Shown here: in pieces, positions 2,116 to 30,531 of the stretch
Layout of the letters: the number at the start of each line of letters is the position of its first letter
Numbering within the stretch: the first letter of the stretch is position 1
Source of the DNA: an uncultured Alphaproteobacteria bacterium
Lineage (GTDB): Bacteria; Pseudomonadota; Alphaproteobacteria; Rs-D84
Direction of reading: 5' to 3'
Length of the DNA: 32,000 bases
Assembly (NCBI GenBank): GCA_963931495.1
Contig: OZ007020.1
Coordinates: 240,001-272,000, forward strand
Notes under the pieces: model-generated
The model's input: the letters and a program-made list of their open reading frames with translations, nothing else
The model's database searches: none
Told to the model about the DNA's origin: nothing
Translations under genes and position numbers: made by a program

Positions 2116-4110
2116 ATGCTTGTGAATAAAAAAATATTCAATCTTCAAAGTGATTATGCCCCTATGGGGGACCAGCCCCAGGCAATTTCTGAATTGGTGG
2201 CGGGTGTTCGTGATGGACGCCGCAACCAAGTGTTGTTGGGGGTGACGGGTTCGGGCAAGACATTTACAATGGCCAATGTTATCGCAGAACTGGGGCGGCC
2301 AGCGTTGATTATGGCGCCGAATAAAATTCTGGCGGCGCAATTGTATACGGAAATGAAGTCGTTCTTTCCGACAAATCATGTTGAATATTTTGTGTCTTAT
2401 TATGATTATTACCAGCCAGAGGCATATTTACCAACAACAGATACGTATATTGATAAAGATGCATCAATAAATGAACAATTGGATCGCATGCGGCACAGCG
2501 CGACGCGCGCAATGCTGGAAGAACGTGATGTCGTTGTCGTATCATCTGTGTCATCAATTTATGGTATGGGTTCCCCAGAACAATATTCTGGGATGAAATT
2601 AGTCTTGCGCGTTGGGGATAAAATCAGTATGGCTGATGTAATGCATGCGTTGGTTGATATTCAATACAAGCGCAACGATGTGTCATTTGAACGTGGAAAT
2701 TTTCGTGTACGTGGTGATACGCTGGATGTGTTCCCATCGCATTCACAGGACAGGGCATGGAAATTGTCTTTCTGGGGGGATGATGTTGAAGAAATATGGG
2801 AATTTGATACGCTGACCGGGGCAAAGTTACAAAAAATGGACAGGGTTGCTGTGTATCCAAATACGCACTATGCAACGCCTATGCCGTCTATATTACAGGC
2901 AATTGGGCAAATTCGTAATGATTTAGATGAACGATTGAAGTATTTTCACGATAACATGAAATATCTGGAAGAACAGCGGTTACGCGAACGTGTGAATTTT
3001 GATATTGAAATGATGGAATCAACCGGTACGTGTCGTGGAATTGAAAATTATTCGCGGTATCTGTCTGGACGTGCGCCGGGGCAACCCCCACCAACACTGT
3101 TTGAATATTTACCAAAAGATGCGGTGTTGTTTATTGATGAAAGTCATGTTACCGTGCCCCAGATTTCGGCCATGTCGCGTGGCGATCGGGCACGTAAAGA
3201 AACACTGGCACAATATGGTTTTCGGTTGCCGGCCTGTATTGATAACCGGCCGTTAACGTTTGATGAATGGAACGAAATGCGCCCGCAAACAATATTTGTT
3301 TCGGCAACACCGGCCGAATGGGAATTAACACAATCAGGTGGGATTGTTTCTGAACAGGTTATTCGCCCAACAGGTCTGTTGGACCCAGAATGTACAGTTC
3401 GGCCCACAGCGCACCAGGTTGATGATTTGCTGGACGAAGTTAAAAAAGTAAATGGTCGCGTTTTGGTTACGACGTTAACAAAAAAAATGGCAGAACAACT
3501 GACCGATTATTTTGTTGAAAATGGGGTGCGGGCAAAATATCTGCACAGTGATATTGAAACGCTGGAACGTATTGAATTGTTACGTGATTTGCGATTGGGT
3601 AAGTTTGATGTCTTGGTTGGAATTAACCTGTTACGCGAAGGTTTGGATGTACCAGAATGCGAACTGGTCGCGATTATGGATGCCGATAAAGAAGGGTTCT
3701 TGCGTTCCACACGCAGTTTGATTCAGACAATTGGGCGGGCCGCACGTAATGCAAATGGACGGGTTATACTGTATGCCGACACAATTACGGATTCTATGCG
3801 GAATGCGTTGGATGAAACAGCACGGCGGCGGCAAAAGCAAATGGCATATAATACATCGCATGGCATTGTACCCAAAACTGTTACCAAGGCTGTGTTTGCC
3901 GAAGTTGGTGATAAACAAGAAAAAACAGATAAAAAACATCGTTTCGTTTATACGTCTGATGGCGTGATGGATGCAGATACATTGCGTAAAGAAATAAAAA
4001 AGTTAACCAAGCAGATGCGCGATGCCGCAGAAAACTTGGAATTTGAACGTGCCGCGGATTTGCGTGATGCCATTCATAAAATGGAAGATGATTTATTGTT
4101 GTTGGAGTAA
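2116..4110 (+). CDS. uvrB: excinuclease ABC subunit B (UvrB)
   Basis: 664-aa ORF with Walker [11 protein letters not shown]. Also has the [10 protein letters not shown] beta-hairpin region, the helicase motifs DESH and [13 protein letters not shown], and the C-terminal UVR motif [10 protein letters not shown]. Confidence 0.97.
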
Positions 4111-4518
4111 GTGGTCATGAAATCAAATTATGAATTAAAAAATATTGATGAAACACGTCAATTCGCGCGGGATTTTGCGCATACACTGCGTGCGCCGGTA
4201 TGTGTCGCATTACATGGCGATTTAGGTATGGGGAAATCTGAAATCGCACGTACAATAATACAAACGTTGCGTGGCCCAGATACTGTTGTCCCCAGTCCAA
4301 CGTTTACAATTGTGCAAAACTATGATGGAATATCGCATTTTGATTTGTATCGCATAAATGATAAATCTGAATTGACAGAAATTGGGTTACCATATGCGTT
4401 GCAAAATGATATTACGTTAATTGAATGGCCGGAAATTGCCACAGATATTTTGCCAGAAAACACAATCCATATTTATTTAACTGGCGATGGCGATACGCGT
4501 ACGTTGCGCATAGAATAA
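4111..4518 (+). CDS. tsaE: tRNA t6A37 biosynthesis ATPase TsaE (YjeE family)
   Basis: 135 aa with the P-loop LHGDLGMGKS, the SPTFTIVQNY motif and HFDLYR. Abuts the uvrB stop. Start is GTG 4111 or ATG 4117. Confidence 0.85.
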   Translation: MVMKSNYELKNIDETRQFARDFAHTLRAPVCVALHGDLGMGKSEIARTIIQTLRGPDTVVPSPTFTIVQNYDGISHFDLYRINDKSELTEIGLPYALQNDITLIEWPEIATDILPENTIHIYLTGDGDTRTLRIE

Positions 4519-4674
4519 ATTTTTAGGAAACTGTACCTGTTGCATGTGTGTACATTCTGGAATAATAATATACGTGTCGTGAAAGCGATGCAAGCATTGC
4601 TGTAATGGTGTTTCTAAGCCCACGAACTCACATCCCTATGGATTTATCCATAAAAGTAATGTTTGCAATAAACA

Positions 4675-4704
4675 GCCTGTGCCACGGCACAGGCGTTTAT
4701 TATT
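4675..4704. terminator. bidirectional rho-independent terminator between tsaE and the ftsA-rpe fusion
   Basis: Stem gcctgtgcc (4675-4683) pairs with ggcacaggc (4686-4694) across a short loop. It is T-rich on the plus side (gtttattatt) and A-rich upstream, which gives T's on the minus strand. Confidence 0.7.
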
Positions 4705-6475
4705 GATTTTTTCGCAACAGGCTTTGTACCGCCAATGGAAAATCTGGACTGTGCGATAAATAAGAACCACTGACCAATAAATCTGCACCAGCCGCCCAGC
4801 ATTGTTGTGCCGTTTTTGGATTTATGCCACCGTCAACAGATATTATATATTTCAAATTATGTTTTTTGCGTGTTGCGGCCAATATTTTTATTTTGTTTAA
4901 GCAAGTGGAATCAAATTCTTGACCGGCCGCACCAGGGGTTACCGCCATTATCATTACTTCATCTATATCCCGTAACACAGGTCGTAATATTGCCGGTGAC
5001 GATTCAGGGTTTAATGCAATGCCGACGCGTCGCGATGCGGCGTGCACTGTTTTTATCGCATCGCGCAGGCCGGATGTGTTTGTTGATAATATTACGGTGT
5101 CGGCACCAGCGGCAACCGCATCTGATGCCCATACGTTTGGGCTTTCTGTCATAAGGTGTACGTGCAAGTGCGCGTTTGTGCGACTGCGTATCTGTTTTAA
5201 TTCGGCGATGCTGCCCGCGATTCTGTCAACATAAAATCCGTCCATTATGTCAACGTGTATCATTGATATACCGCCGGCGTTAAATAATGAATATGTTTCG
5301 GGACGTGTCATATCAAAACACAGTGTACTGGGCATTATCGGAATAAAACGTGTACGCTTTTTACGACGTGGGCGAAACACCGATACGGTGCGCGCAATAA
5401 TGCCGTGTATACGATTGCGGCGCGCAATATATGCATCGCGATGCTTTTGCTCTTTATCCCATATGTATGTTGACAGTGCACGAATGTTCGCATCAGAACG
5501 AATGTTTTGTACCGGGATATTAAATATATTTTCAATGAATTCATCAATACTGGTTATTTCAGAACCACCCCCAGATATAAAAATTTGCTTTATGGCATAT
5601 TTCTGTAAAACGTCAGTTGCGATGTCTTTTATTCGCTGGCATATTTCCAGCATGTACGGCATAATCACATCGTTTACGTCGGCGCGCGAAAATTCGTATT
5701 CTGTGTCCGCCGGGGTGAAACGATCCATTTCTTTGGGTATCAAGTCAGCAACATTACGCTTTATCCGTTCTGCATCATCAAAACTGATATTCAATTTTTC
5801 TGAAATTTCATTTGTTATTGTTGTGCCACCAATGTTTATCTTGGTATACAGTACCGGACCACGGTCAATCCATATTGATACAGACGTATACTGGGCGCCA
5901 AAATCAATAAACATACACGCCATTTTTTGTTGGCGAAAAACAATGTTTTGCAAATACATTGAATCATAAAATCCAATCGGTTGAATGTGTGCATGACGCA
6001 GGTCTGATAAAATATGATTCATCGTTTCGTGCGGATAAAAAATGGCACCGAATACAGATATCAGTTGTCTGTCTGTATGACCAATCGGGGTGAACATGTC
6101 ACGCGCCGTTGGGGTGTCGTATCGCATTGGAATTACATGCATGGGATAGTAATCGTCTGGGGCCGAAATTTGCGAAATTTGATTGCGAATGTCAGTCGTA
6201 CTGATTTTGTGTTCGCCACGCCATACAGTGTTTTTTGCGGTTACAGATAATTTTATATTGCCAAAATTTCCGGTAATATATGCATCGTCAAAATGTGTGC
6301 CAATTTGACGTTCCAATTCATCCGTCACAGAATTTAATGCAAACACCGTATCGTAATTATCAACAGAATATACCGCCGATTTCGCAATGCGTCCATTGCG
6401 TACACGGTGGGCAATACCGCGTATACCGCTGGTACCAATATCCAAGCATAAAAAAGACGAATCCAATAAATTCAT
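4700..6475 (-). CDS. FtsA-like actin-fold domain fused to a ribulose-phosphate 3-epimerase (Rpe) domain
   Basis: Single 591-aa ORF. The N-terminal ~345 aa carry FtsA-like motifs: LDIGTSGIRG, HVIPMRY, FIDFGAQYTSVSIW, INIGGTTITNEI..FDDAERIKR and IFISGGGSEI. A basic linker RPRRKKRTR follows. The C-terminal ~220 aa carry Rpe motifs: IMPSTLCFDM, HVDIMDGFYV, HVHLM, MAVTPGAAGQEF, SVDGG and AGADLLVSGS. Confidence 0.8.
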   Translation of the reverse strand: MNLLDSSFLCLDIGTSGIRGIAHRVRNGRIAKSAVYSVDNYDTVFALNSVTDELERQIGTHFDDAYITGNFGNIKLSVTAKNTVWRGEHKISTTDIRNQISQISAPDDYYPMHVIPMRYDTPTARDMFTPIGHTDRQLISVFGAIFYPHETMNHILSDLRHAHIQPIGFYDSMYLQNIVFRQQKMACMFIDFGAQYTSVSIWIDRGPVLYTKINIGGTTITNEISEKLNISFDDAERIKRNVADLIPKEMDRFTPADTEYEFSRADVNDVIMPYMLEICQRIKDIATDVLQKYAIKQIFISGGGSEITSIDEFIENIFNIPVQNIRSDANIRALSTYIWDKEQKHRDAYIARRNRIHGIIARTVSVFRPRRKKRTRFIPIMPSTLCFDMTRPETYSLFNAGGISMIHVDIMDGFYVDRIAGSIAELKQIRSRTNAHLHVHLMTESPNVWASDAVAAGADTVILSTNTSGLRDAIKTVHAASRRVGIALNPESSPAILRPVLRDIDEVMIMAVTPGAAGQEFDSTCLNKIKILAATRKKHNLKYIISVDGGINPKTAQQCWAAGADLLVSGSYLSHSPDFPLAVQSLLRKNQ

Positions 6476-6484
6476 TATCGTTGT

Positions 6485-7165
6485 TTATTTTATTAAAATT
6501 CGTGCATCGTCACGCATATCAATAAAATTCAGTTTCTTGGATAAAATGCCGTGGTTTTTATTTATTACCCCCAAAGATGCAATTGCGGATGCGGCGTCGT
6601 GTTCCGGCAACATTATTGTTATTCCATCATTCGTAACCATATTCCAGCGACGATTTTCAATCCATTCCATATAGTTTATGTTATTTGCCATATTTTGTGC
6701 GGATTCTGTTATCCCAGATATATCATTTGGCAATGTGCCACGAAATGTAACCAGTTCGTTTGTGCGGGTTTCAGATGGCTTGTTTATAATTGTACCATCG
6801 GATGACAGGGGGTAATAGTATGTGCCGTCCGTCCATTGGGCAATTGCGCGATAAAAATCAACCTTTACCGACAAATTGCCATCAGGTCGGCGATGCACCG
6901 CGGATTGACGAACCCCAGGTACAGATGCCACGCGTGAATTTATATTTGCCAAATTTGCGCTGTATGCGCGTGTCCCAGGGGCAACCGCAACCGCCGCCGC
7001 AATCGCATCCAGGTTTTTGTTTGCCGAATCTGTTGTTATTGATATTGTTCGGATGTATGACAGTGCACTGCGCCCCGTACATATCCAGATTACGCGGGTT
7101 GCAAAATATATGGCTAAAACAATAGCGATAATAAAATACAGCCAAAACCATATATTTCTTTTCAT
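6485..7165 (-). CDS. ftsQ: cell division protein FtsQ-like (bitopic, POTRA-type)
   Basis: 226 aa with an N-terminal TM (WFWLYFIIAIVLAIYFATRVI). Size is as expected and it sits 9 nt upstream of the ftsA-like ORF, the canonical ftsQ-ftsA order. Sequence similarity itself is weak. Confidence 0.6.
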   Translation of the reverse strand: MKRNIWFWLYFIIAIVLAIYFATRVIWICTGRSALSYIRTISITTDSANKNLDAIAAAVAVAPGTRAYSANLANINSRVASVPGVRQSAVHRRPDGNLSVKVDFYRAIAQWTDGTYYYPLSSDGTIINKPSETRTNELVTFRGTLPNDISGITESAQNMANNINYMEWIENRRWNMVTNDGITIMLPEHDAASAIASLGVINKNHGILSKKLNFIDMRDDARILIK

Positions 7166-7219: not shown

Positions 7220-7600
7220 TTAACTGGCACGTAATAAATATCCGCGACCAAACATGCAACGGCGGTACGCCCCAACAGACTTTGACGTTGTATTACGTGG
7301 CACAGACAATAATGCACGTTGGCCCACGTCGCGATATTCGTTTGATTGGAATGTTACCCATAACCCGTCCCAGTCGGGCATAATACTGCTCTGGTTCGGG
7401 GAAAGCAGTTTTGAAATTCGTGAACGTGGCATATATGATGGCCGGTCAATGCCCAGGCACGCCTTGTGATCACGGACAAACTGTTCCATGGTTACAGATT
7501 CATTTTCCCAATTCAGTATTGTTGCATCGTCCAAACTGCCCCGATTTACGGATGCGCATGCAGTCAGTGCCAGCAGTAATACGATGAATTTTATTCTCAT
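7220..7600 (-). CDS. small lipoprotein, unknown function
   Basis: 126 aa with a signal peptide and lipobox LLLALTAC. Confidence 0.6.
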   Translation of the reverse strand: MRIKFIVLLLALTACASVNRGSLDDATILNWENESVTMEQFVRDHKACLGIDRPSYMPRSRISKLLSPNQSSIMPDWDGLWVTFQSNEYRDVGQRALLSVPRNTTSKSVGAYRRCMFGRGYLLRAS

Positions 7601-7677
7601 GTTTTGTATTATAATTTAATTGCCTTGTGGGGGCAATAGTTTTTATAATATGATATAATGGAATATAGGATGGGGAT

Positions 7678-8004
7678 ATGGCAATAACCGTTCAGAATTT
7701 TATAAAACTGGCAAATCTGTATAACCAGATGACAATGGTTATGTCGGCAATCTGTGTGCAAAAGGGCGGAATTGCAATTGAAAACTATGTCGGGCGCTTT
7801 TTTATGGCTGATGTTTTAGAATATATTTCTGAATACGGTCGCAGATTGTTGGACGATAAAAAAATGACTGTGCCCGCAGATGTTGCAAATGTTATACAAA
7901 AATTTCAATCGCAATATGAAATGGTGAAAGATTTAACAACCCCAACCCAAAAACCGTTGTATGAAATGACACTGGAAGAATTTGAACGGGTTATGAATAT
8001 TTGA
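7678..8004 (+). CDS. hypothetical protein, no signal peptide; first gene of the Lol-linked cluster
   Basis: 108-aa ORF with SD aggatgggg upstream of the ATG. No motif recognised. Confidence 0.5.
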   Translation: MAITVQNFIKLANLYNQMTMVMSAICVQKGGIAIENYVGRFFMADVLEYISEYGRRLLDDKKMTVPADVANVIQKFQSQYEMVKDLTTPTQKPLYEMTLEEFERVMNI

Positions 8005-8024
8005 ATTAATGGCAAGGTGACAAT

Positions 8025-9365
8025 ATGAATGCAGTAAAACGTACGCTTTGTGGAATATTTGCAGCAGGGATGTTGGTGCTGGGGGGCGCCTGTACGCGAC
8101 AATCACAGAACCAGGTGCCGCAATATGATACCATCAATGTTGTTGAGAATTTTGTGATTGATGAAAATTCTGTGCCGATTTTTCCAAAAAAGGCCGCATT
8201 GACAACCGATACGGCCCAGCGATTTTCGTTGGATTTGCCCAAAAGATGTACTGTGAATTGGGATAACCAGACAATTGTTTCGGTCGTTCCCGAAGAACCC
8301 ATAGAAATGGTGCGTTTGGGGTTGGGGGATCCGTTGCCTGATTTGTTGGTGTCTGATTATGAATTTCGTGAATTAACGGTCAAAGAAGCCTTGGATAAAT
8401 TACTGGTCGGGACAGACATTTCTGTCATAGAAGATGAAGATTTAACAGAAACAATTTCGGGTTCTGTGTCGTCTGGGAATTTGACTGATACGGTTGAACT
8501 GATGGCCAAAATGGGGCGGGTGTATTATTCGTATGATGCGGTTAACGCAGAAATTCACTTAAATCATCGGGCGAAATGGATGATAAAAATGCCGCGTGAT
8601 GAAAATATAATTATGGCACTGTTGGATGCAATGCACGGGGCGGATATGCGGAATTTGTTGGTTGATTGGCAAGACAAGACAATGGTATTTGAAGGTAATT
8701 ATCAAACAGAACGCGAAGTGGCCAAGATCATTTCAGATATTGCGTCAAAGAAATATATGTTGGCGTGGGATATTGATGTATATCGTGTCTATCCACGTAC
8801 AGATAATCCGATTATATGGATGAATTTATTGCCGGCGTTCGGGGATAATAACATAAAAATGTCTATACCAGGCGTGGTTGGACGTGCACTGGTGGTCAGT
8901 CCGGAAATAAATACAAAAACACTGCAAGAATTTTTATCGCAACAGGCAAATGTTGTTCTGATATCCCAGGGACAGTTTGTTATTCCAAATGGGTGGCAAT
9001 CGCGATTTGATATTGGGCAATGCAGCAAAGAAGAACGTTTGGAAACAGATTTGATAATTGGGGCCACGGGTGTGTATGGCGATTTTGGGGGCAAGGACAA
9101 GATTGATGCAAAAATTGTTTTGCGTACCAGTAACGGTGAATTAACATCATTTAATATTCCGTCTGATGTTGGCGATAACTATGTGATTATTGGTATTCCA
9201 ACACATTCGTTTGTTACAACGCCGGAAACGTTAATCAGCCCATTCGCAGAACTGGTGGTGTTTATGTCGCCACGCATCATTTCTATTGTTGATGCAGATA
9301 CGGCGCCAGATGGTGGGGCGCAGCCATTGGTTGGTGATGCGTTACGGGATTTTTTAAGTAAATAA
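8025..9365 (+). CDS. lipoprotein of unknown function with faint secretin-like N-domain and C-terminal signatures
   Basis: 446 aa with SD aaggtg, and signal peptide plus Cys (AAGMLVLGGAC). ELTVKEALDKLLVGTDISVI and TDTVELMAKMGRVYYSYD resemble STN/secretin N-domains. ANVVLISQGQFVIPNG...DIGQ, DNYVIIGIP and the terminal ELVVFMSPRII resemble secretin C-domain motifs. The family call is unverified. Confidence 0.7.
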   Translation: MNAVKRTLCGIFAAGMLVLGGACTRQSQNQVPQYDTINVVENFVIDENSVPIFPKKAALTTDTAQRFSLDLPKRCTVNWDNQTIVSVVPEEPIEMVRLGLGDPLPDLLVSDYEFRELTVKEALDKLLVGTDISVIEDEDLTETISGSVSSGNLTDTVELMAKMGRVYYSYDAVNAEIHLNHRAKWMIKMPRDENIIMALLDAMHGADMRNLLVDWQDKTMVFEGNYQTEREVAKIISDIASKKYMLAWDIDVYRVYPRTDNPIIWMNLLPAFGDNNIKMSIPGVVGRALVVSPEINTKTLQEFLSQQANVVLISQGQFVIPNGWQSRFDIGQCSKEERLETDLIIGATGVYGDFGGKDKIDAKIVLRTSNGELTSFNIPSDVGDNYVIIGIPTHSFVTTPETLISPFAELVVFMSPRIISIVDADTAPDGGAQPLVGDALRDFLSK

Positions 9366-9380
9366 CAGGAATTTGGTAAT

Positions 9381-10634
9381 ATGTTTTCAAAACTGGAAAG
9401 AAAAGTTGCATTCCGATATCTGGGCGCAAAAAAGCGCGGTTTTGGTTCCGTGATTTCGTGGGTGTCGTTAATCGGTATTATGTTGGGGGTGGGGACCCTG
9501 ATTGTTGTTATGTCGGTTATGGGCGGGTTTCATGACACGTTGCTGTCGCGTATCGTCGGAATGAATGGGCATGTCGTCGTTTATCACCAAGATGGCGCAA
9601 TTGCTGATTATGATTTCTTGATTGATAAAATGAAACAAAACAAGGTTGTTGCCGCCAATGCCACTGGGGTTGTCCCAATCGTAGAGGGCCAGGTGATGGC
9701 CACGGCCGGTGGATATAATACAGGTGCAATAATTCGCGGAATTCGTATGTCTGATTTGGCGGCCAAGACAACCACGGGCACAAAAATTTATGGCAAACCA
9801 CTGGATAAAATTCGTGATGGCGAATTGGTTGGTGGTGCGTCTTTGACCCGGGCGTTGCGTGTTGGTATGGGGGATATGATTTCGCTGGTTTCTGCAAATG
9901 GGGCAACGCCAACACCGTTTGGTTCAATGCCACGGATTATGGCGTATCCGGTTATGTCATCGTTCTTTATGGGAATGTATGAATATGATTCTGGGTACAT
10001 ATTTATGCCATTGGAAACGGCGCAAAAGTATCTGAATATTCAAGATTCTGTGACGCATATTGATTTATTCTTGCGTGATCCCGAAGATACAACAGATGTA
10101 CGTGATGCGTTGGCAAATATGTTGCCAACCGGGTTTGTTGTGCGCGATTGGCGTGAATTGAATCGCGGATTTGTCGGTGCGTTACAGGTGGAATCAAATG
10201 TAATGTTTTTGATATTGTTGCTGATTGTGATTGTGGCGGCATTCAATATTGTTTCCAGTCTGGTTATGCTGGTCAAAGATAAATCCAAAGATATTGCGGT
10301 GTTGCGGACATTCGGTGTATCGCGTCGTTCTATGATGAAAATTTTTGTTTTGTCTGGGACCAGTATCGGGATTTTGGGCGCGTTGTTTGGAACTGTGCTG
10401 GGGGTTGTGATTGCGATTTATATTGAACCAATACGTCAATTCGTTCAATGGGCCACAGGACGTGATTTGTTCCCGGCAGAATTATATTATTTATCAGAAT
10501 TACCGTCAAAATTGGTGCCAGGGGAAGTAATTGGAATTGCGCTGATTGCGGTGCTGTTGGCATTTTTGGCAACGCTGTATCCGGCGTGGAAAGCGGCCAG
10601 CACAGATCCGGTTGACGTATTAAGAAATGAATAA
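9381..10634 (+). CDS. lolC: lipoprotein-releasing ABC transporter permease, LolC/LolE family
   Basis: 417 aa. The N-terminus VAFRYLGAKKRGFGSVISWVSLIGIMLGVGTLIVVMSVMGGF matches the LolC/E pattern. It has a large periplasmic loop and a C-terminal FtsX-type 3-TM bundle. Confidence 0.9.
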   Translation: MFSKLERKVAFRYLGAKKRGFGSVISWVSLIGIMLGVGTLIVVMSVMGGFHDTLLSRIVGMNGHVVVYHQDGAIADYDFLIDKMKQNKVVAANATGVVPIVEGQVMATAGGYNTGAIIRGIRMSDLAAKTTTGTKIYGKPLDKIRDGELVGGASLTRALRVGMGDMISLVSANGATPTPFGSMPRIMAYPVMSSFFMGMYEYDSGYIFMPLETAQKYLNIQDSVTHIDLFLRDPEDTTDVRDALANMLPTGFVVRDWRELNRGFVGALQVESNVMFLILLLIVIVAAFNIVSSLVMLVKDKSKDIAVLRTFGVSRRSMMKIFVLSGTSIGILGALFGTVLGVVIAIYIEPIRQFVQWATGRDLFPAELYYLSELPSKLVPGEVIGIALIAVLLAFLATLYPAWKAASTDPVDVLRNE

Positions 10635-10646
10635 AGGAATCGCGTA

Positions 10647-11357
10647 ATGGCAAATATACTGAATTCTTTGTCTAAAATTTCAAAGGGTGATATTGTGCTG
10701 TCGGTGCGCGATATCAAAAAGACATTTATGGAAGGGGGGCAACCATTACATATTTTACGTGGTGGTGGATTTGATTTGCATCGTGGCGAAATAATTGCGC
10801 TGGTTGGACCGTCGGGCAGTGGTAAGTCTACGTTATTACAATGTGTTGGATTGCTGGATCGGCCAACATCGGGCAGTATTTTGCTGGACGGTGTGCCTGT
10901 TCAAAAAATGGATGATGAAATGCGCACGATGATGCGCCGGCGTAAAATTGGTTTTGTGTATCAGCGTCATAATTTATTGTCTGATTTTACTGCGTTGGAA
11001 AATGTTGTGTTGCCAATGTTGGCAAATGGGGTGGATGAACACAGTGCAAATGCGCGCGCAATGAAATTATTACGCGCGGCCAGTGTTGCGCATCGGGCAT
11101 CACATCTGCCGGGCGAAATGTCGGGTGGCGAACAACAGCGTACGGCCGTGGCACGTGCATTGGCAAACAGCCCAGAAATATTGTTGGCAGATGAACCAAC
11201 CGGCAGTTTGGATCCCACACATGCACAATCTGTGTTTGATTTGTTGTTGGATTTAGTGCGTAAAAATAAAATGGCAATGTTGTTTGTTACACATGATATG
11301 AATCTGGCATCACGGGCGGACAGAAAAATTACTATTCACGACGGCGTCGTTGAATGA
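10647..11357 (+). CDS. lolD: lipoprotein-releasing ABC transporter ATP-binding protein LolD
   Basis: Walker A GPSGSGKST, LolD-like LSDFTALENV, signature MSGGEQQRTAVARAL and Walker B ILLADEPTG. Lies 12 nt after lolC/E. Confidence 0.92.
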   Translation: MANILNSLSKISKGDIVLSVRDIKKTFMEGGQPLHILRGGGFDLHRGEIIALVGPSGSGKSTLLQCVGLLDRPTSGSILLDGVPVQKMDDEMRTMMRRRKIGFVYQRHNLLSDFTALENVVLPMLANGVDEHSANARAMKLLRAASVAHRASHLPGEMSGGEQQRTAVARALANSPEILLADEPTGSLDPTHAQSVFDLLLDLVRKNKMAMLFVTHDMNLASRADRKITIHDGVVE

Positions 11358-11388
11358 TATAATATAAATAAAACAGGGGAAGCGAGAG

Positions 11389-12078
11389 ATGAAAAAAGCA
11401 GCACCGAAATCAAAACAAAAAACAGCACAGGTTTGTGACTGTTACAGCACTGGTCATAAAATTTGGGGCGCGGTCGCATTGGCCGGATTGTTTTCTTGTG
11501 GATTAATATTGGGGTTAACATATCGTCCAGAACCCGTCCAAGAGGTACGTCTGGATGCGCAACAGTGTGATGCAATTGCAAATGAAATTATCAAGATTAC
11601 AACTGATGGGGCAACCACAGAAAATGTTGATGTGTTAAATGAATTGAATGCGGCGTACTCTGATGGTTGCGCCGGGCGCTTGGTTATAATTGACCGCGTG
11701 GCAAGTCAAAATCTGATGCCGGAAATAATTTCAACTTGTTCACGTATTGAACAATTGTTGACATCACGTCTGCATCCTGAATCTGATACAGATTATTTGG
11801 CACATTTAAGTAATGCGGATACATACAGTACGTTGGCGGAACGTGGATGTGCGGAAAACGCGGATATGTATAAAACAATGGCACTGCGTGAATTGGAAAT
11901 CGCAACGGCGTTAAAGCCAGAAGAAAATATGAATGAATCTGATACAGAAATTGTGATTGATACGTTCAAAAAGTTGGATATGCAACGCGAAGCACAACAA
12001 TTTTTAGATAAAATTCAACAATTAACCAATCCAGCAATTGATTTTATCTTGCAGATGGAACAGGTAATAAATGGATAA
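11389..12078 (+). CDS. membrane-anchored Cys-module protein, paralogue 1 (unknown function)
   Basis: 229 aa with SD ggggaag and an N-terminal TM (IWGAVALAGLFSCGLILGLTY). Two Cys-bracketed modules, and a C-terminal tail shared with 12830-13630. Confidence 0.75.
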   Translation: MKKAAPKSKQKTAQVCDCYSTGHKIWGAVALAGLFSCGLILGLTYRPEPVQEVRLDAQQCDAIANEIIKITTDGATTENVDVLNELNAAYSDGCAGRLVIIDRVASQNLMPEIISTCSRIEQLLTSRLHPESDTDYLAHLSNADTYSTLAERGCAENADMYKTMALRELEIATALKPEENMNESDTEIVIDTFKKLDMQREAQQFLDKIQQLTNPAIDFILQMEQVING

Positions 12079-13992: not shown

Positions 13993-14094
13993 AAATAAAA
14001 ACACCCGCCGAATGGCGGGTGTTTATATTTTGTGACGGAGTGGTGAGATGAGAACCACTGGTTCGACAATGAGTAGATTTGACCGGCAACGCGC
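13965..14094 (+). repeat. repeat copy A: tRNA-Tyr T-arm/3' end, terminator and downstream segment (x+y)
   Basis: 13965-14065 (x) recurs at 15435-15532. 14046-14094 (tail of x plus y) recurs at 17095-17143. Confidence 0.9.
14001..14031. terminator. rho-independent terminator after tRNA-Tyr, usable on both strands
   Basis: Stem acacccgcc / ggcgggtgt with loop gaat, followed by ttatatttt. The minus-strand reading is followed by ttttatttt. Confidence 0.75.
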
Positions 14095-14134
14095 GGTCAA
14101 AACGTCAGGAATGCCCCACAGGGCACTTTTTATA

Positions 14135-14794
14135 TTAACTTTTTTTATTTTTAGATAAAAAAGCAATTATTAACACCAAACTTATACAGAATAAAAAAGA
14201 AATGCCATTAATAACATCATTTGTTCTATCTTTTTCCATAACTGTATAAAATTTTTTATCATCGCTAAAAGGGCATTCTTTTGCTCTTTTTTCAACTGAT
14301 TTACGAACATTTGAATCCCATCTAATTTTAAATTTTTCAAATGTTGAAGCAGTATCATATACTTCTTTTCCACTAATCAATCCTTCACGACAATTTGTGT
14401 TTTTATATGAATCTGCAAAACCTTCTTGAATAATACTATTATTTAGTTCTTTTTTGCATTCTTGTATAACTTCATTTCTATTGTTCTTTTCTATATCTGT
14501 TGAATACATATCTCTTTCTTTATCGGACATATTATAATATTTATCCCAGTCCATTTTATCGGCAATTTTTCCAGTATAACAATCACATACTTTTTCTATC
14601 ATATCTGTTTTCTTTTTATCATCAATTTCAACAGGGATATTTTTTATCATTATGTTTTCACAATGCATAAGAGCAACTGTTCTAAACGCTAATTCTACAG
14701 AAGCAAGTTCAACATCTTTTTTTATAGGTTCTGATTGTGCTTGGGCAAAAAATACACAACTTATAATAATAAAAAATGATATTATTTTTTTCAT
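14135..14794 (-). CDS. islet-encoded exported protein with a C-terminal membrane anchor, Lys/Asp/Cys-rich (unknown function)
   Basis: 219 aa with SD aagga. Has a signal peptide (FFIIISCVFFAQAQS) and a C-terminal TM (ISFLFCISLVLIIAFL). Confidence 0.65.
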   Translation of the reverse strand: MKKIISFFIIISCVFFAQAQSEPIKKDVELASVELAFRTVALMHCENIMIKNIPVEIDDKKKTDMIEKVCDCYTGKIADKMDWDKYYNMSDKERDMYSTDIEKNNRNEVIQECKKELNNSIIQEGFADSYKNTNCREGLISGKEVYDTASTFEKFKIRWDSNVRKSVEKRAKECPFSDDKKFYTVMEKDRTNDVINGISFLFCISLVLIIAFLSKNKKS

Positions 14795-14811
14795 ATTATA
14801 ATCCTTATATA

Positions 14812-15237
14812 TTATTGAACATTTATTTCTGGTTTTTCTTTATCTGGATTATCTGTAAAATCTTTTACACAATATATAAAAGCAATATCTATTAACTTTT
14901 CTCTTGTTTCAGCAATATTAAATACGTTTACAATATGTTTTTTGATTGCATTATAAGTTTTGGGTTCTTTTAAAACATTACCATTGTATAGGTTTATTGT
15001 TGCACATTCACATAATTGATTAACATAAATAACCTTTCCTAATGTGGTTTCTTCTTTTGGTGTATATTTTTTTACACATAAATCTCTTATTTTATCTTCA
15101 TTATCAAAAACATTGTGCACATATTCATTAATATATTTATTTTTATAGTAATTATTAATACATAAATATCCAACAAAAGATATACCCAATCCAAGCAATA
15201 CAACAGATGATATATAAATAAATTTCTTATTTTTCAT
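14812..15237 (-). CDS. islet-encoded small membrane-anchored protein (unknown function)
   Basis: 141 aa with an N-terminal TM (FIYISSVVLLGLGISFVGYLCI). Lies 17 nt upstream of the 14135-14794 ORF on the same strand. Confidence 0.6.
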   Translation of the reverse strand: MKNKKFIYISSVVLLGLGISFVGYLCINNYYKNKYINEYVHNVFDNEDKIRDLCVKKYTPKEETTLGKVIYVNQLCECATINLYNGNVLKEPKTYNAIKKHIVNVFNIAETREKLIDIAFIYCVKDFTDNPDKEKPEINVQ

Positions 15238-15434
15238 TTTGTATTCTTTTTTAATTATTTGAATTCATACCCATTATAATTTAAATATACAAAATGTCAT
15301 TATTAATTTTTTATGTGCTTTTTATTAAAAACACGTTAAAATTATAAAAGTGCTAAGCAAACTGTCTGGCAATTCAATGTTTTTATAGTCAAAAGTGTCA
15401 AGCAAAGAGCAATTTTTGGCTAAAAACCGGCATT

Positions 15435-15532
15435 GGTGGTAATCCACCCACTCCCACCAAAATAAAAATACCCGCCGAATGGCGGGTGTTTATATTTTGT
15501 GACGGAGTGGTGAGATGAGAACCACTGGTTCG
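15435..15532 (+). repeat. repeat copy B: partial tRNA-Tyr 3' half plus terminator (x only)
   Basis: Aligned by eye to 13965-14065. It differs by a 3-nt deletion (tcg of the T-loop) and one substitution (c14002 / t15469). Homology stops after ggttcg. Confidence 0.9.
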
Positions 15533-15719
15533 TAATATGCCAAACTGGGGTATTGTAAAGCCAGCGTTTTTTTAGTAAAATCTGGATTGTCGGTAAAGCC
15601 AAATTCAAATGAAATAGGGGACAGGTAATTGTAAATCCAATAAAACAATTACCGCGGGTTATAAAAACATTACGTTTGGAATATATGAATAAATAGTTGT
15701 TTCTGTGTGTGGGGGCAAT

Positions 15720-16274
15720 ATGGTGTGGAATTTTTATTTCTTTCGGCATGGGCAAACAAACGAAAACGCCGAAGGCGCAAAAGAAGGTAATCGTACAGAT
15801 GCGTATCTGACGTCTGATGGTGTTAAACAGGCCGAACGATTGGCCGAATTTTTGCGCGATAAAAAAATAGATGCGTTTTATTCTTCGCCATTGCCACGGG
15901 CGGTGCGTACGGCTGAAATTGTGGGTGAATATCATCCGGCCGCACCAATTATTATCAACAGTGATTTTATAGAAACAGCATTCGGATTTTGGTACAACGA
16001 TGATTCTGATGCGCAACGTCGCATAGATAACAATTTCAAGCGCATCAGTGGTGCGTTGGGGCGCATCGTTGCACAAAGCAAATATTCAAACATTGCCATA
16101 TCATCGCATGGTGGTGTGACGCGCGCATTGTGTTGGGCGACGGGTATGCGTGTCGGGCATATTAAAAATTGTCAATGCTTTCATTTTATTTTGGATGACG
16201 ATGGTTGGCATTTTGTGGAAAGTTTTGAGTCTGGTATTGAAGTCGTAAATAAATCTGATGTCGGGCAAATGTGA
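15720..16274 (+). CDS. histidine phosphatase family protein (phosphoglycerate mutase-like)
   Basis: RHG motif FFRHGQTNEN, SSPLPRAVRTAE and SSHGGVTRA. ATG 15720 is preferred over the track's GTG 15705. Confidence 0.85.
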   Translation: MVWNFYFFRHGQTNENAEGAKEGNRTDAYLTSDGVKQAERLAEFLRDKKIDAFYSSPLPRAVRTAEIVGEYHPAAPIIINSDFIETAFGFWYNDDSDAQRRIDNNFKRISGALGRIVAQSKYSNIAISSHGGVTRALCWATGMRVGHIKNCQCFHFILDDDGWHFVESFESGIEVVNKSDVGQM

Positions 16275-17258: not shown

Positions 17259-18398
17259 ATGATTAAAATGGGTGCTGGTATGAATAGTGGTGTACTTGTA
17301 AATACAGGTAAAGGTTATAGCGCATTTAAGCCAAGTAAGTTGGCCGATATTGAAAAAGAATTGAATATTTCTGAAATACAATTCTTGATTGAACGTGCTA
17401 ATTTATCGGTTGGTGAATTGCGTGCTATGCAGAAAATGTTGCCTAATCCCGCGCTGTTGATGGAAAGGTATGCGTTAAAGGAGTCTGTATTATCATCGCA
17501 AATAGAAGGGACCCAATCAACGTTGGTAGATGTTTTGGAAAAGGAAAATGACCCGTCGGATAATACAGATATCAGGGAAGTGAAAAATTATTTTAATGCG
17601 TTGAATTTTGGGGTTAATAATTTGCAGCGTGATGATGGGTTGCCACTATCTGGTCGTTTGTTGCGCGAATGTCATAGAATTTTAATGTCTGATGTGCGTG
17701 GTGGGGATAGACTAAAAACGCCTGGTGAATTCAGAACATCGCAAAATTGGATCGGGGGCAGTTGTCCAGCAAATGCCACATATGTTCCGCCTGTTGCAAG
17801 TGATATTGACGAATATATGTCAGATATAGAAAATTATATTCATCACGGCGTGCATCCGAATATGGTCAAAGCCGCTTTGGTGCATTATCAGTTTGAAACC
17901 TTGCATCCGTTTCAGGACGGTAATGGGCGCATCGGACGTTTGTTGATATTGTTGTTTATGATAGATAAGAAAATTTTGAATTCGCCGACTTTATATATCA
18001 GTTTGTATTTGAAAAAAATGCAAAACGAGTATTATGCATCTTTAACAAAAGTGCGTCACAGTGCAGACTTTATTCAATGGATAAAGTTTTTCTTGGATGG
18101 CGTTATCGCCGTTTCAGAGCAGACCATGGCAACAACAAAAAAGATAATAGAATTGGAAAATAAAGATAGAGCACGCCTGAAAACAGGCAGTTTAATAAGG
18201 GCTTTTGATGTTCTGATGAAAAAACCGGTTGTTTCTATCAAAGATATGCAAGAAGAACTGGGGGTTACAAATGCTACGGCGAATTCGTTGATAAAGAAAC
18301 TGGAAGCGGCGCAAATATTAGTTCAAAAAAACAATAAACAACGTTATCGTATCTATGCCTATAAAGACTATCTGGATATTATAGAATCGGGCTTATAA
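17259..18398 (+). CDS. Fic family protein (class II, N-terminal inhibitory motif) with a C-terminal winged-helix domain
   Basis: Fic active-site motif HPFQDGNGRIGR and inhibitory motif SSQIEGT ([S/T]xxxE[G/N]). C-terminal HTH-like region LGVTNATANSLIKKLEAAQILV. The start may be ATG 17268 (see findings). Confidence 0.92.
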   Translation: MIKMGAGMNSGVLVNTGKGYSAFKPSKLADIEKELNISEIQFLIERANLSVGELRAMQKMLPNPALLMERYALKESVLSSQIEGTQSTLVDVLEKENDPSDNTDIREVKNYFNALNFGVNNLQRDDGLPLSGRLLRECHRILMSDVRGGDRLKTPGEFRTSQNWIGGSCPANATYVPPVASDIDEYMSDIENYIHHGVHPNMVKAALVHYQFETLHPFQDGNGRIGRLLILLFMIDKKILNSPTLYISLYLKKMQNEYYASLTKVRHSADFIQWIKFFLDGVIAVSEQTMATTKKIIELENKDRARLKTGSLIRAFDVLMKKPVVSIKDMQEELGVTNATANSLIKKLEAAQILVQKNNKQRYRIYAYKDYLDIIESGL

Positions 18399-30054: not shown

Positions 30055-30531
30055 ATGCGAATTTTAGGAATTGACCCGGGATTATTGCATACAGGGTGGG
30101 CGATAATTGATTCTGTGGGTTCTGAACGCAGATATGTGGCCAGCGGGGTTATTTTACCAAAAACATCGGGGACGTTACCAGAACGGCTGAATGCGATATT
30201 TCGTGGGGTTGATGATTTATGTGAAAAATTTTCACCGGATGTATGCAGCATAGAAATTACATTCGTAAATCAAAATCCAAAAACAACATTAATTCTGGGG
30301 CATGCACGGGCGGCGGCAATTGTGGCGGTGGCAAATCGTGATATTCCAATTTATGAATATGAACCAAATAAAATAAAAAAAGCACTGACATCGGCCGGAC
30401 ATGCAGACAAGGACCAGGTTTATAAAATGGTGCGGATTTTATTGCCGGCTGCAAATCCAAAAACATCAGACGAAAGTGACGCAATTGCAATCGCGTTGGC
30501 GCATGCAAATATGAGCAAATTCAAGTTTTAG
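30055..30531 (+). CDS. ruvC: crossover junction endodeoxyribonuclease RuvC
   Basis: MRILGIDPGLLHTGWAII, an E in IEITFVN, and DESDAIAIALAH. Confidence 0.93.
   Translation: MRILGIDPGLLHTGWAIIDSVGSERRYVASGVILPKTSGTLPERLNAIFRGVDDLCEKFSPDVCSIEITFVNQNPKTTLILGHARAAAIVAVANRDIPIYEYEPNKIKKALTSAGHADKDQVYKMVRILLPAANPKTSDESDAIAIALAHANMSKFKF

Follow-up and report, generated by a model that had tools for sequence, protein, structure and literature searches.

Does an open reading frame (ORF) that begins like the cell division protein FtsA and ends like the pentose-phosphate enzyme ribulose-phosphate 3-epimerase (Rpe) encode one genuine protein, and what could such a protein do? The question is raised by a stretch of 32,000 nucleotides, hereafter called the window, from contig OZ007020.1 (assembly GCA_963931495.1, positions 240,001 to 272,000) of an uncultured alphaproteobacterium of order Rs-D84. 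The gene at 4700..6475 on the minus strand is a single uninterrupted ORF of 591 amino acids (aa) with an ATG start codon. An earlier note, made from the sequence alone, had described it as an in-frame fusion of an FtsA-like domain with a complete Rpe domain, and the ORF list, Pfam, NCBIfam and the predicted fold all agreed with this description. The fusion proved to be real, ancient and lineage-wide, occurring throughout Candidatus Enterousia, order Rs-D84 and allied metagenome-assembled genomes (MAGs). One membrane-tethered bifunctional FtsA-Rpe protein in a gut alphaproteobacterium with a reduced genome is considered its best and, on balance, a probable explanation.

In Pfam, PF14450 (FtsA) matched aa 189-327 with 58.5 bits (gathering score 31.8) and PF00834 (Ribul_P_3_epim) matched aa 382-573 with 138 bits (gathering score 21.1), the latter over positions 4-197 of the 198 in the profile. 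Among NCBIfam models, TIGR01174 (ftsA) was the best actin-family match and covered aa 30-336, its 83.9 bits missing the equivalog cutoff of 175.85. Models for rpe covered aa 380-586; the cutoff of 165 was narrowly reached for NF004076 (167.5 bits), while that of 212.6 was not reached for the equivalog TIGR01163 (142 bits). An AlphaFold2 model built from 120 homologues displayed a mean predicted local distance difference test (pLDDT) of 91.4 and a predicted template modelling score (pTM) of 0.61, with no confident packing between the domains. The short motifs quoted in the earlier note were all recovered: RPRRKKRTR at aa 368-376, HVDIMDG at 407, HLHVHLM at 436 and SVDGGI at 546.

The distribution of the fusion was examined at the level of proteins and of genomes. 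A search of 5.8 billion proteins with the fused protein as query recovered at least 120 cluster representatives at 61-72 % identity, all 584-597 aa long and all with both domains; those bearing a name were called "ribulose-phosphate 3-epimerase" and came from Alphaproteobacteria or Candidatus Enterousia MAGs. When the FtsA-like part alone was used in an exhaustive HMMER search, proteins of fused length (552-623 aa) were reached down to 25-30 % identity and ordinary FtsAs of 400-440 aa turned up only from E~1e-17 (21-31 % identity); the shorter strong matches were all fragments, truncated at a contig end or by a frameshift. Pfam detected the Rpe domain in 22 of 25 scanned sequences. Genomes were scanned with full-length fused proteins at one genome per GTDB species, and the best 80 of 579 matched stretches were considered. 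The full-length fusion gene was encountered in at least 80 species-representative genomes, at 45-73 % identity. A set of 83 related loci was drawn from these genomes, and at all 83 both domains lay in one frame without a stop codon. The earlier note had asked whether orthologues are fused or separate: they were fused at every locus, and no split version was found among full-length relatives down to ~25 % identity.

An assembly or sequencing artefact, or a pseudogene born from a recent frameshift or stop loss in one genome, would have a certain prior plausibility for a lone metagenomic contig and nothing more in its favour. The same architecture recurred in hundreds of independent assemblies and both halves are under strong purifying selection, which leaves an artefact a vanishing probability. 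The assembly error feared in the earlier note is contradicted by the uninterrupted fusion at the 83 loci, and a recent loss of the stop codon, also envisaged there, by its presence in relatives as distant as ~25 % identity. Mean identity within the close family amounted to 60 % for the FtsA half, 39 % for the linker and 75 % for the Rpe half. Across 102 fused proteins, the pairwise identities of the two halves were strongly correlated (Spearman 0.93), which points to one ancient fusion event followed by co-divergence.

The hosts of the species-representative loci were uncultured gut Alphaproteobacteria from human, chicken, ruminant, horse and termite, many of them named Ca. Enterousia. Rs-D84 genomes measure 0.67-1.6 Mb and retain most steps of the non-oxidative pentose-phosphate pathway (PMC12306168). 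A few bins with the fusion gene were obviously mislabelled; four fusion contigs (L037, L077, L078 and L082) were filed under 'uncultured Muribaculaceae bacterium' and are probably mis-binned or mislabelled MAGs. One collected sequence of 762 aa (P0140) was repetitive, with 12 distinct stretches matching aa 100-143 of the FtsA-like domain, displayed a PPARgamma_N match in Pfam and is probably an unrelated low-complexity or contaminant sequence. The RuvC of the window (30055..30531) was encoded identically on contig s287.ctg000449c of ENA ERZ21564551 (L089, 958,617 bp), whose suffix 'c' hints at a circular, closed genome of ~0.96 Mb.

Is the N-terminal half truly an FtsA? The actin-fold motifs that the earlier note had placed in the N-terminal ~345 aa were present in the window protein, namely phosphate-1 LDIGTSG (aa 11), phosphate-2 IDFGAQYT (aa 190) and the adenosine motif ISGGGS (aa 300); residues D12, G14, D191, G193 and G302 were invariant across 120 close homologues. 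In Foldseek, the top 19 matches of this half were all FtsA structures (including 3wt0, 1e4g, 7q6f and 7q6i), with target-normalised template modelling (TM) scores of 0.67-0.75 against 0.55-0.64 for PilM. The window protein itself displayed no Pfam match to the SHS2 domain at E<0.01; SHS2_FTSA was matched in 11 of 25 scanned sequences and also in the fused proteins P0134 and P0146. As the earlier note had it, the gene occupies the ftsA slot directly after ftsQ, the upstream ORF being an FtsQ with POTRA and FtsQ_DivIB_C domains. This arrangement was found at 83 of 83 loci and, beyond these, at those of the most divergent members (L084-L088). Where the stop codon of the upstream gene could be located, it overlapped the fusion start by 4 nt or preceded it by at most 41 nt, and by at most 20 nt in 51 of 53 relatives; ftsQ and the fusion are probably co-transcribed.

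These data bear on the idea that the N-terminal domain is instead a diverged actin/ASKHA-fold partner of Rpe, the true FtsA, if any, being encoded elsewhere. The missed TIGR01174 cutoff, the mere 21-31 % identity to canonical FtsAs and the absence of nucleotide-binding aspartates from some deep members would fit such a partner. In family and in fold, FtsA nevertheless came first, before PilM and MreB; the FtsA-specific SHS2 (1C) insert, which takes the place of subdomain 1B in the FtsA layout 1A-1C-2A-2B, was detected in family members, the place after ftsQ was invariant with coupled gene junctions, and a membrane-targeting helix of FtsA type stood where it would be expected. A non-FtsA identity is accordingly regarded as highly improbable. 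An ASKHA sugar kinase was also considered for this domain and was ruled out by fold, SHS2 insert and synteny. Three fused proteins (P0142, P0146 and P0149, from loci such as L084) displayed IYFG or IYPG in place of DIGT and HLG or NLG in place of DFG, with the Rpe tetrad still present; because these aspartates are replaced, ATP binding by the FtsA half may not be a family-wide property.

The membrane-targeting helix of FtsA normally stands at the extreme C-terminus and from there switches both polymerisation and membrane binding. The earlier note had assumed that a basic linker replaces this helix in the fusion, and in this it was mistaken. At the junction of the AlphaFold2 model, aa 343-367 formed a continuous helix and aa 368-379 a basic segment of low confidence, whose pLDDT dropped under 50 at aa 371-373; strand beta-1 of the barrel followed. 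A conserved amphipathic helix at aa ~350-367 precedes the basic tract, and RIHGIIARTVSVF aligned with the C-terminal amphipathic helices of canonical FtsAs (GIIKKIRNFISDFF, GIFSKITRWWRGL, SLFGKIRKFINDNF). Over the 102 fused proteins, columns 356, 360, 363, 366 and 367 were hydrophobic at 67-98 % and columns 352, 355 and 362 were mainly basic. The periodicity of hydrophobicity along the helix peaked at 100-110 degrees per residue. The best hydrophobic moment (muH) over 14 residues was 0.63 +/- 0.12 in the fused proteins and 0.59 +/- 0.12 in 101 canonical FtsA tails, versus 0.41 +/- 0.13 in control windows (p = 5e-33). Judging from these alignments, the FtsA membrane-targeting helix appears to be conserved in the fused protein, at an internal position instead of the C-terminus.

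Beyond the helix, lysine or arginine occurred at 26-86 % in columns 368-376, with a mean of 5.2 such residues in the tract, and the 46-aa linker region carried a net charge of ~+9. Linker length was 41-43 aa in 77 of 83 cases, and the spacing from F367 to P379 was 12-14 aa in 84 of the 102 proteins. The match to the Rpe profile began at profile position 3-7, right after the helix. This anatomy of the junction indicates that a complete rpe was simply attached, end to end, to an ftsA that was itself complete and still had its helix.

One transcription unit could still deliver two proteins, either by internal initiation near Met381 or by proteolysis in the basic linker, which is flexible, low in pLDDT and presumably open to proteases. 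At the position of Met381, ATG was found in 42 and TTG in 12 of 82 orthologues, so that 54 carry one of these codons there. The other 28 displayed non-start codons (TTA, CTG, GCG, TAC or GCC), which speaks against internal initiation at the Met of IPIMPS, suggested in the earlier note, as a general mechanism; an Rpe starting at Met381 would also begin within strand beta-1. No Shine-Dalgarno-like motif preceded an in-frame ATG in aa 356-392 in any of the 83 genes, a weak test in that the true start was likewise devoid of such a motif. The frame was conserved across the junction in every genome (83 of 83 loci), which favours a single polypeptide, presumably of ~66 kDa, and two separate products are considered very unlikely.

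The Rpe half superimposed on Rpe of Streptococcus pyogenes (2FLI) with a TM score of 0.92 and a root-mean-square deviation of 1.5 A over 211 columns in Foldseek. In an end-to-end alignment, the tetrad H407, D409, H440 and D548 corresponded to H34, D36, H67 and D176 of 2FLI, so that the metal and catalytic residues are indeed retained, as had been read from the sequence. Methionines M411, M442 and M510 were also kept and aligned with 2FLI residues, M442 being invariant in the 102 fused proteins. The phosphate-binding DGG and GS elements were kept; loop 6 read PGAAGQ, nearer to PGFAGQ of allulose-6-phosphate epimerase than to PGFGGQ.

The catalytic tetrad was intact in 100 of the 102 fused proteins. 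The exceptions were P0134 (L086/L087, gene 10001-11770), where it read YTHC, and P0129 (L088, gene 4568-6295), where it read NDNY and the PGxxGQ loop was lost. Both belong to genomes of low guanine-plus-cytosine (GC) content (25.6 % and 23.6 %, respectively) and share the usual synteny, and P0134 occurred on many independent long contigs. Their barrels still scored as Rpe-family domains (88.9 bits for P0134 and 28.8 bits for P0129), and that of P0134 was predicted to be complete (pLDDT ~90). In these two proteins the barrel had diverged at least as fast as the FtsA half; the opposite held for all other members. P0134 was also devoid of the FtsA phosphate-1 and phosphate-2 aspartates.

Retention of a full barrel despite a destroyed active site suggests a role beyond catalysis, a structural one being the simplest reason. 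Free Rpe enzymes are dimers or hexamers. Entries 1tqj, 7u5y, 2fli and 7b1w (6 and 12 chains) of the Protein Data Bank are consistent with such oligomers. Since its free counterparts oligomerise, the fused barrel likely cross-links FtsA protomers or multiplies membrane contacts. A more radical reading is that the barrel was co-opted as an obligatory structural and regulatory divisome module: it would form an oligomerising platform, which might respond to pentose phosphates, would set the assembly state and membrane avidity of FtsA, and would be a pure pseudoenzyme scaffold in the most reduced members. Such a co-option may go together with a rearranged division apparatus in which ftsZ is unlinked from ftsA. 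It might perhaps also provide a local supply of ribulose 5-phosphate (Ru5P) for the synthesis of 3-deoxy-D-manno-oct-2-ulosonic acid (Kdo) and lipopolysaccharide at the septum, lpxC and lpxK being nearby in deep relatives. The dead-site variants amount to two lineages only and could be decaying rather than co-opted. Obligatory co-option is considered unlikely.

For the preferred model, a membrane-tethered bifunctional protein, the following course can be proposed. In an early ancestor, an ftsA orthologue of the Ca. Enterousia / order Rs-D84 type would have received a complete rpe at its 3' end, and the ftsQ-ftsA operon would since then yield the fusion as one polypeptide. The N-terminal actin-fold core, whose nucleotide motifs are intact in the window, would perform the normal task of FtsA at the division site. 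The internal amphipathic helix, reinforced by the polybasic tract, would anchor the protein on the inner side of the membrane, and the Rpe barrel, ~12 residues beyond, would probably supply Ru5P/xylulose 5-phosphate (Xu5P) epimerase activity from a membrane- and divisome-tethered position. It would probably also cross-link FtsA protomers or raise membrane avidity. Expression as a single polypeptide is presumed here, and so are attachment to the membrane, epimerase activity, oligomerisation and a functional coupling of the two halves, if any.

The main rival to this bifunctional protein is a neutral passenger: in a shrinking genome, an rpe came to lie directly behind ftsA, the two genes merged when the intervening stop codon and spacer disappeared, and drift fixed the product, the halves working independently and their linkage being meaningless. 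This would suit the strong reduction of the genomes in the lineage, the end-to-end join of two complete proteins, the preservation of each half's own functional motifs in nearly all members and the want of confident inter-domain packing in the AlphaFold2 model (low pTM despite high pLDDT). It is less easily reconciled with three observations. Fission would require just a stop and a start codon, and no split form was seen among the full-length relatives down to ~25 % identity; linker length and helix-to-barrel spacing were tightly conserved; and the full barrel persisted in two lineages with destroyed catalysis, which is unexpected for a pure enzyme passenger. None of the three is decisive, and a meaningless linkage is judged possible but rather doubtful.

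Several points weigh against the bifunctional model itself. A long-kept fusion can be a neutral feature, and the fold predicted for P0134 owes much to an alignment made up mostly of active homologues. In the fused proteins that diverge most (P0144, P0147, P0151 and P0156), the basic linkers were shorter and no amphipathic helix could be clearly made out. The helix might also turn its hydrophobic side towards a domain and not towards the membrane. The FtsA half is very divergent, as indicated by its TIGR01174 score, and in a few deep relatives the aspartates of the phosphate-1 and phosphate-2 motifs are gone; for these reasons, classical FtsA behaviour cannot be assumed. The sole-copy status of ftsA and rpe, as well as the presence of ftsZ, was examined only within 10 kb around the fusion.

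The features of the fused gene and of its surroundings are collected in Table 1.

Table 1. Coordinates of the fused gene, its parts and its neighbours in the window
Feature	Coordinates	Strand	Basis
Whole fused gene (591 aa + stop; FtsA core, amphipathic helix, polybasic tract, Rpe barrel)	4700..6475	-	ORF list, domain scans
FtsA-type actin-fold domain, aa 1-~342	5450..6475	-	PF14450, TIGR01174, Foldseek
Long helix, aa 343-367; C-terminal part aa ~350-367 (...IARRNRIHGIIARTVSVF) amphipathic, resembling the FtsA membrane-targeting helix, now internal	5375..5449	-	AlphaFold2, alignment
Polybasic tract, aa 368-376 (RPRRKKRTR), flexible helix-to-barrel joint	5348..5374	-	Low pLDDT, Lys/Arg columns
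Complete Rpe (beta/alpha)8 barrel, aa ~379-591	4703..5341	-	PF00834, NF004076, 2FLI alignment, Foldseek
ftsQ, directly upstream of the fusion, 9-nt gap	6485..7165	-	POTRA_1 + FtsQ_DivIB_C (Pfam)
126-aa lipoprotein, lipobox LTAC, upstream of ftsQ (place of ddl in the classic dcw cluster)	7220..7600	-	Lipobox read in sequence
Bidirectional intrinsic terminator hairpin between fusion gene and tsaE	4675..4694	both	Terminator scan, sequence reading
tsaE, convergent with the fusion	4111..4518	+	PF02367, TIGR00150
orf108	7678..8004	+	
orf446	8025..9365	+	
MacB_PCD/FtsX permease	9381..10634	+	
ABC ATPase	10647..11357	+	

No ftsZ was found in the 32-kb window, in line with the earlier note, which had reported a terminator and a convergent tsaE in its place. 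The terminator hairpin lies just past the fusion stop codon, has an 8-bp stem with six GC pairs and scored on both strands. Over 1.69 Mb of related sequence, which comprised the 10 kb on either side of the fusion at 89 loci and the window with a 10-kb extension, neither ftsZ, nor a second ftsA, nor a second rpe was detected. The commonest gene order, displayed by 57 of the 83 loci, was MacB/FtsX, orf446, orf108, lipoprotein, ftsQ and fusion, then convergent tsaE and uvrB; uvrB is convergent with the fusion gene in the window as well. The stop codon of uvrB and the GTG start of tsaE abut at 4110/4111, which suggests translational coupling, and the uvrB-tsaE pair was repeated at most related loci.

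The small lipoprotein upstream of ftsQ, which stands where ddl would be found in the classic division and cell wall (dcw) cluster, had also been pointed out beforehand. It was present at 72 of the 83 loci. The block at 7220-11357, running from the lipoprotein to the ABC ATPase, adjoined ftsQ at 68-72 of the 83 loci and was also found in deep relatives, where FtsQ and the FtsA domain were less well conserved than the lipoprotein (E 1e-51 to 1e-63) and orf446 (E ~0). No Pfam match was obtained for the lipoprotein, orf108 or orf446, and the block may form a module associated with the envelope or with division. In deep relatives, lpxC and lpxK were situated within a few kb of the fusion (L084, 15905-17757; L085, 5821-7769), and ftsZ was missing from the interval that separates ftsA and lpxC, as though the classic ftsA-ftsZ-lpxC order had survived in part after the loss of ftsZ. 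Elsewhere in the window, a low-GC stretch at 14001-16000 (0.28-0.33 versus ~0.42 overall) contained ORFs without Pfam matches and adjoined a Fic/DOC-family protein (17259..18398); together with its neighbours up to 18398, it may be an acquired island.

How does the fused protein relate to known systems? With canonical FtsA (Escherichia coli; Thermotoga maritima 1E4G/4A2A; Vibrio 7Q6F) it shares the actin-like fold, the layout of subdomains, the phosphate-1, phosphate-2 and adenosine motifs, the position directly after ftsQ and an amphipathic helix following the core. It differs from canonical FtsA in that the helix is internal and reached by a continuous helix instead of a long disordered linker, in that a polybasic tract and a 210-aa enzyme domain are added past the helix, in its very divergent core, shortened in several loops, and in the lack of ftsZ downstream. 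With ordinary Rpe (S. pyogenes 2FLI; human 3OVP) it shares the complete barrel, the His-Asp-His-Asp tetrad, the methionine cushion and the DGG and GS elements. Unlike in ordinary Rpe, the N-terminus of the barrel is covalently tethered to FtsA and, presumably, to the membrane, two fused lineages carry catalytically dead barrels, and invariant changes specific to the family are displayed: LHVHLM for (L/F)D(V/C)HLM, PGAAGQ for PGFGGQ and DGFYV for DGHFVPN.

Metabolic enzymes moonlighting as division regulators include UgtP, KidO and GdhZ. Links between metabolism and division through separate proteins have been described for OpgH in E. coli (PMC3723540) and for QueE (PMC11142719), and a link of pyruvate and glycolysis to division for Bacillus subtilis (PMC4030479). 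Like OpgH or QueE, the fusion physically joins an enzyme of central metabolism to the divisome and would offer a route for coupling division with metabolic state. The moonlighting regulators, in contrast, are separate proteins that bind FtsZ reversibly, whereas Rpe is here permanently fused to the membrane anchor FtsA. The helix region of FtsA governs self-assembly and membrane binding, and attachments at this place are positioned to influence the oligomeric state; the helix of the fusion, unlike the free C-terminal helix of FtsA, would not swing freely and would bear an oligomerising barrel.

No description of an FtsA-Rpe fusion, or of Rpe in cell division, was found in the searchable literature, in accordance with the earlier note, which had known of none. 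Both domain families are well known, albeit divergent here, and the novelty lies in the architecture: an internal helix, a central-metabolism enzyme as C-terminus and a lineage-wide distribution. No earlier example was found in which a core divisome protein covalently incorporates an enzyme of central metabolism.

Public records label the fusion genes only as "ribulose-phosphate 3-epimerase" or "hypothetical protein", so that automated reconstructions of Rs-D84/Enterousia likely miss FtsA; published Rs-D84 reconstructions reported MreB, RodA and MrdA and did not mention FtsA or FtsZ (PMC12306168). For the dead-site lineages, such reconstructions may wrongly count an Rpe activity. With its internal helix and a 24-kDa enzyme ~12 residues further on, the natural fusion constitutes a ready test of how much freedom the FtsA switch needs and of how its oligomeric state is set. 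The lineages with dead barrels suggest a transition from enzyme to scaffold. In these gut bacteria, the fusion may connect cell division with metabolism, or the enzyme may serve the divisome as a scaffold.

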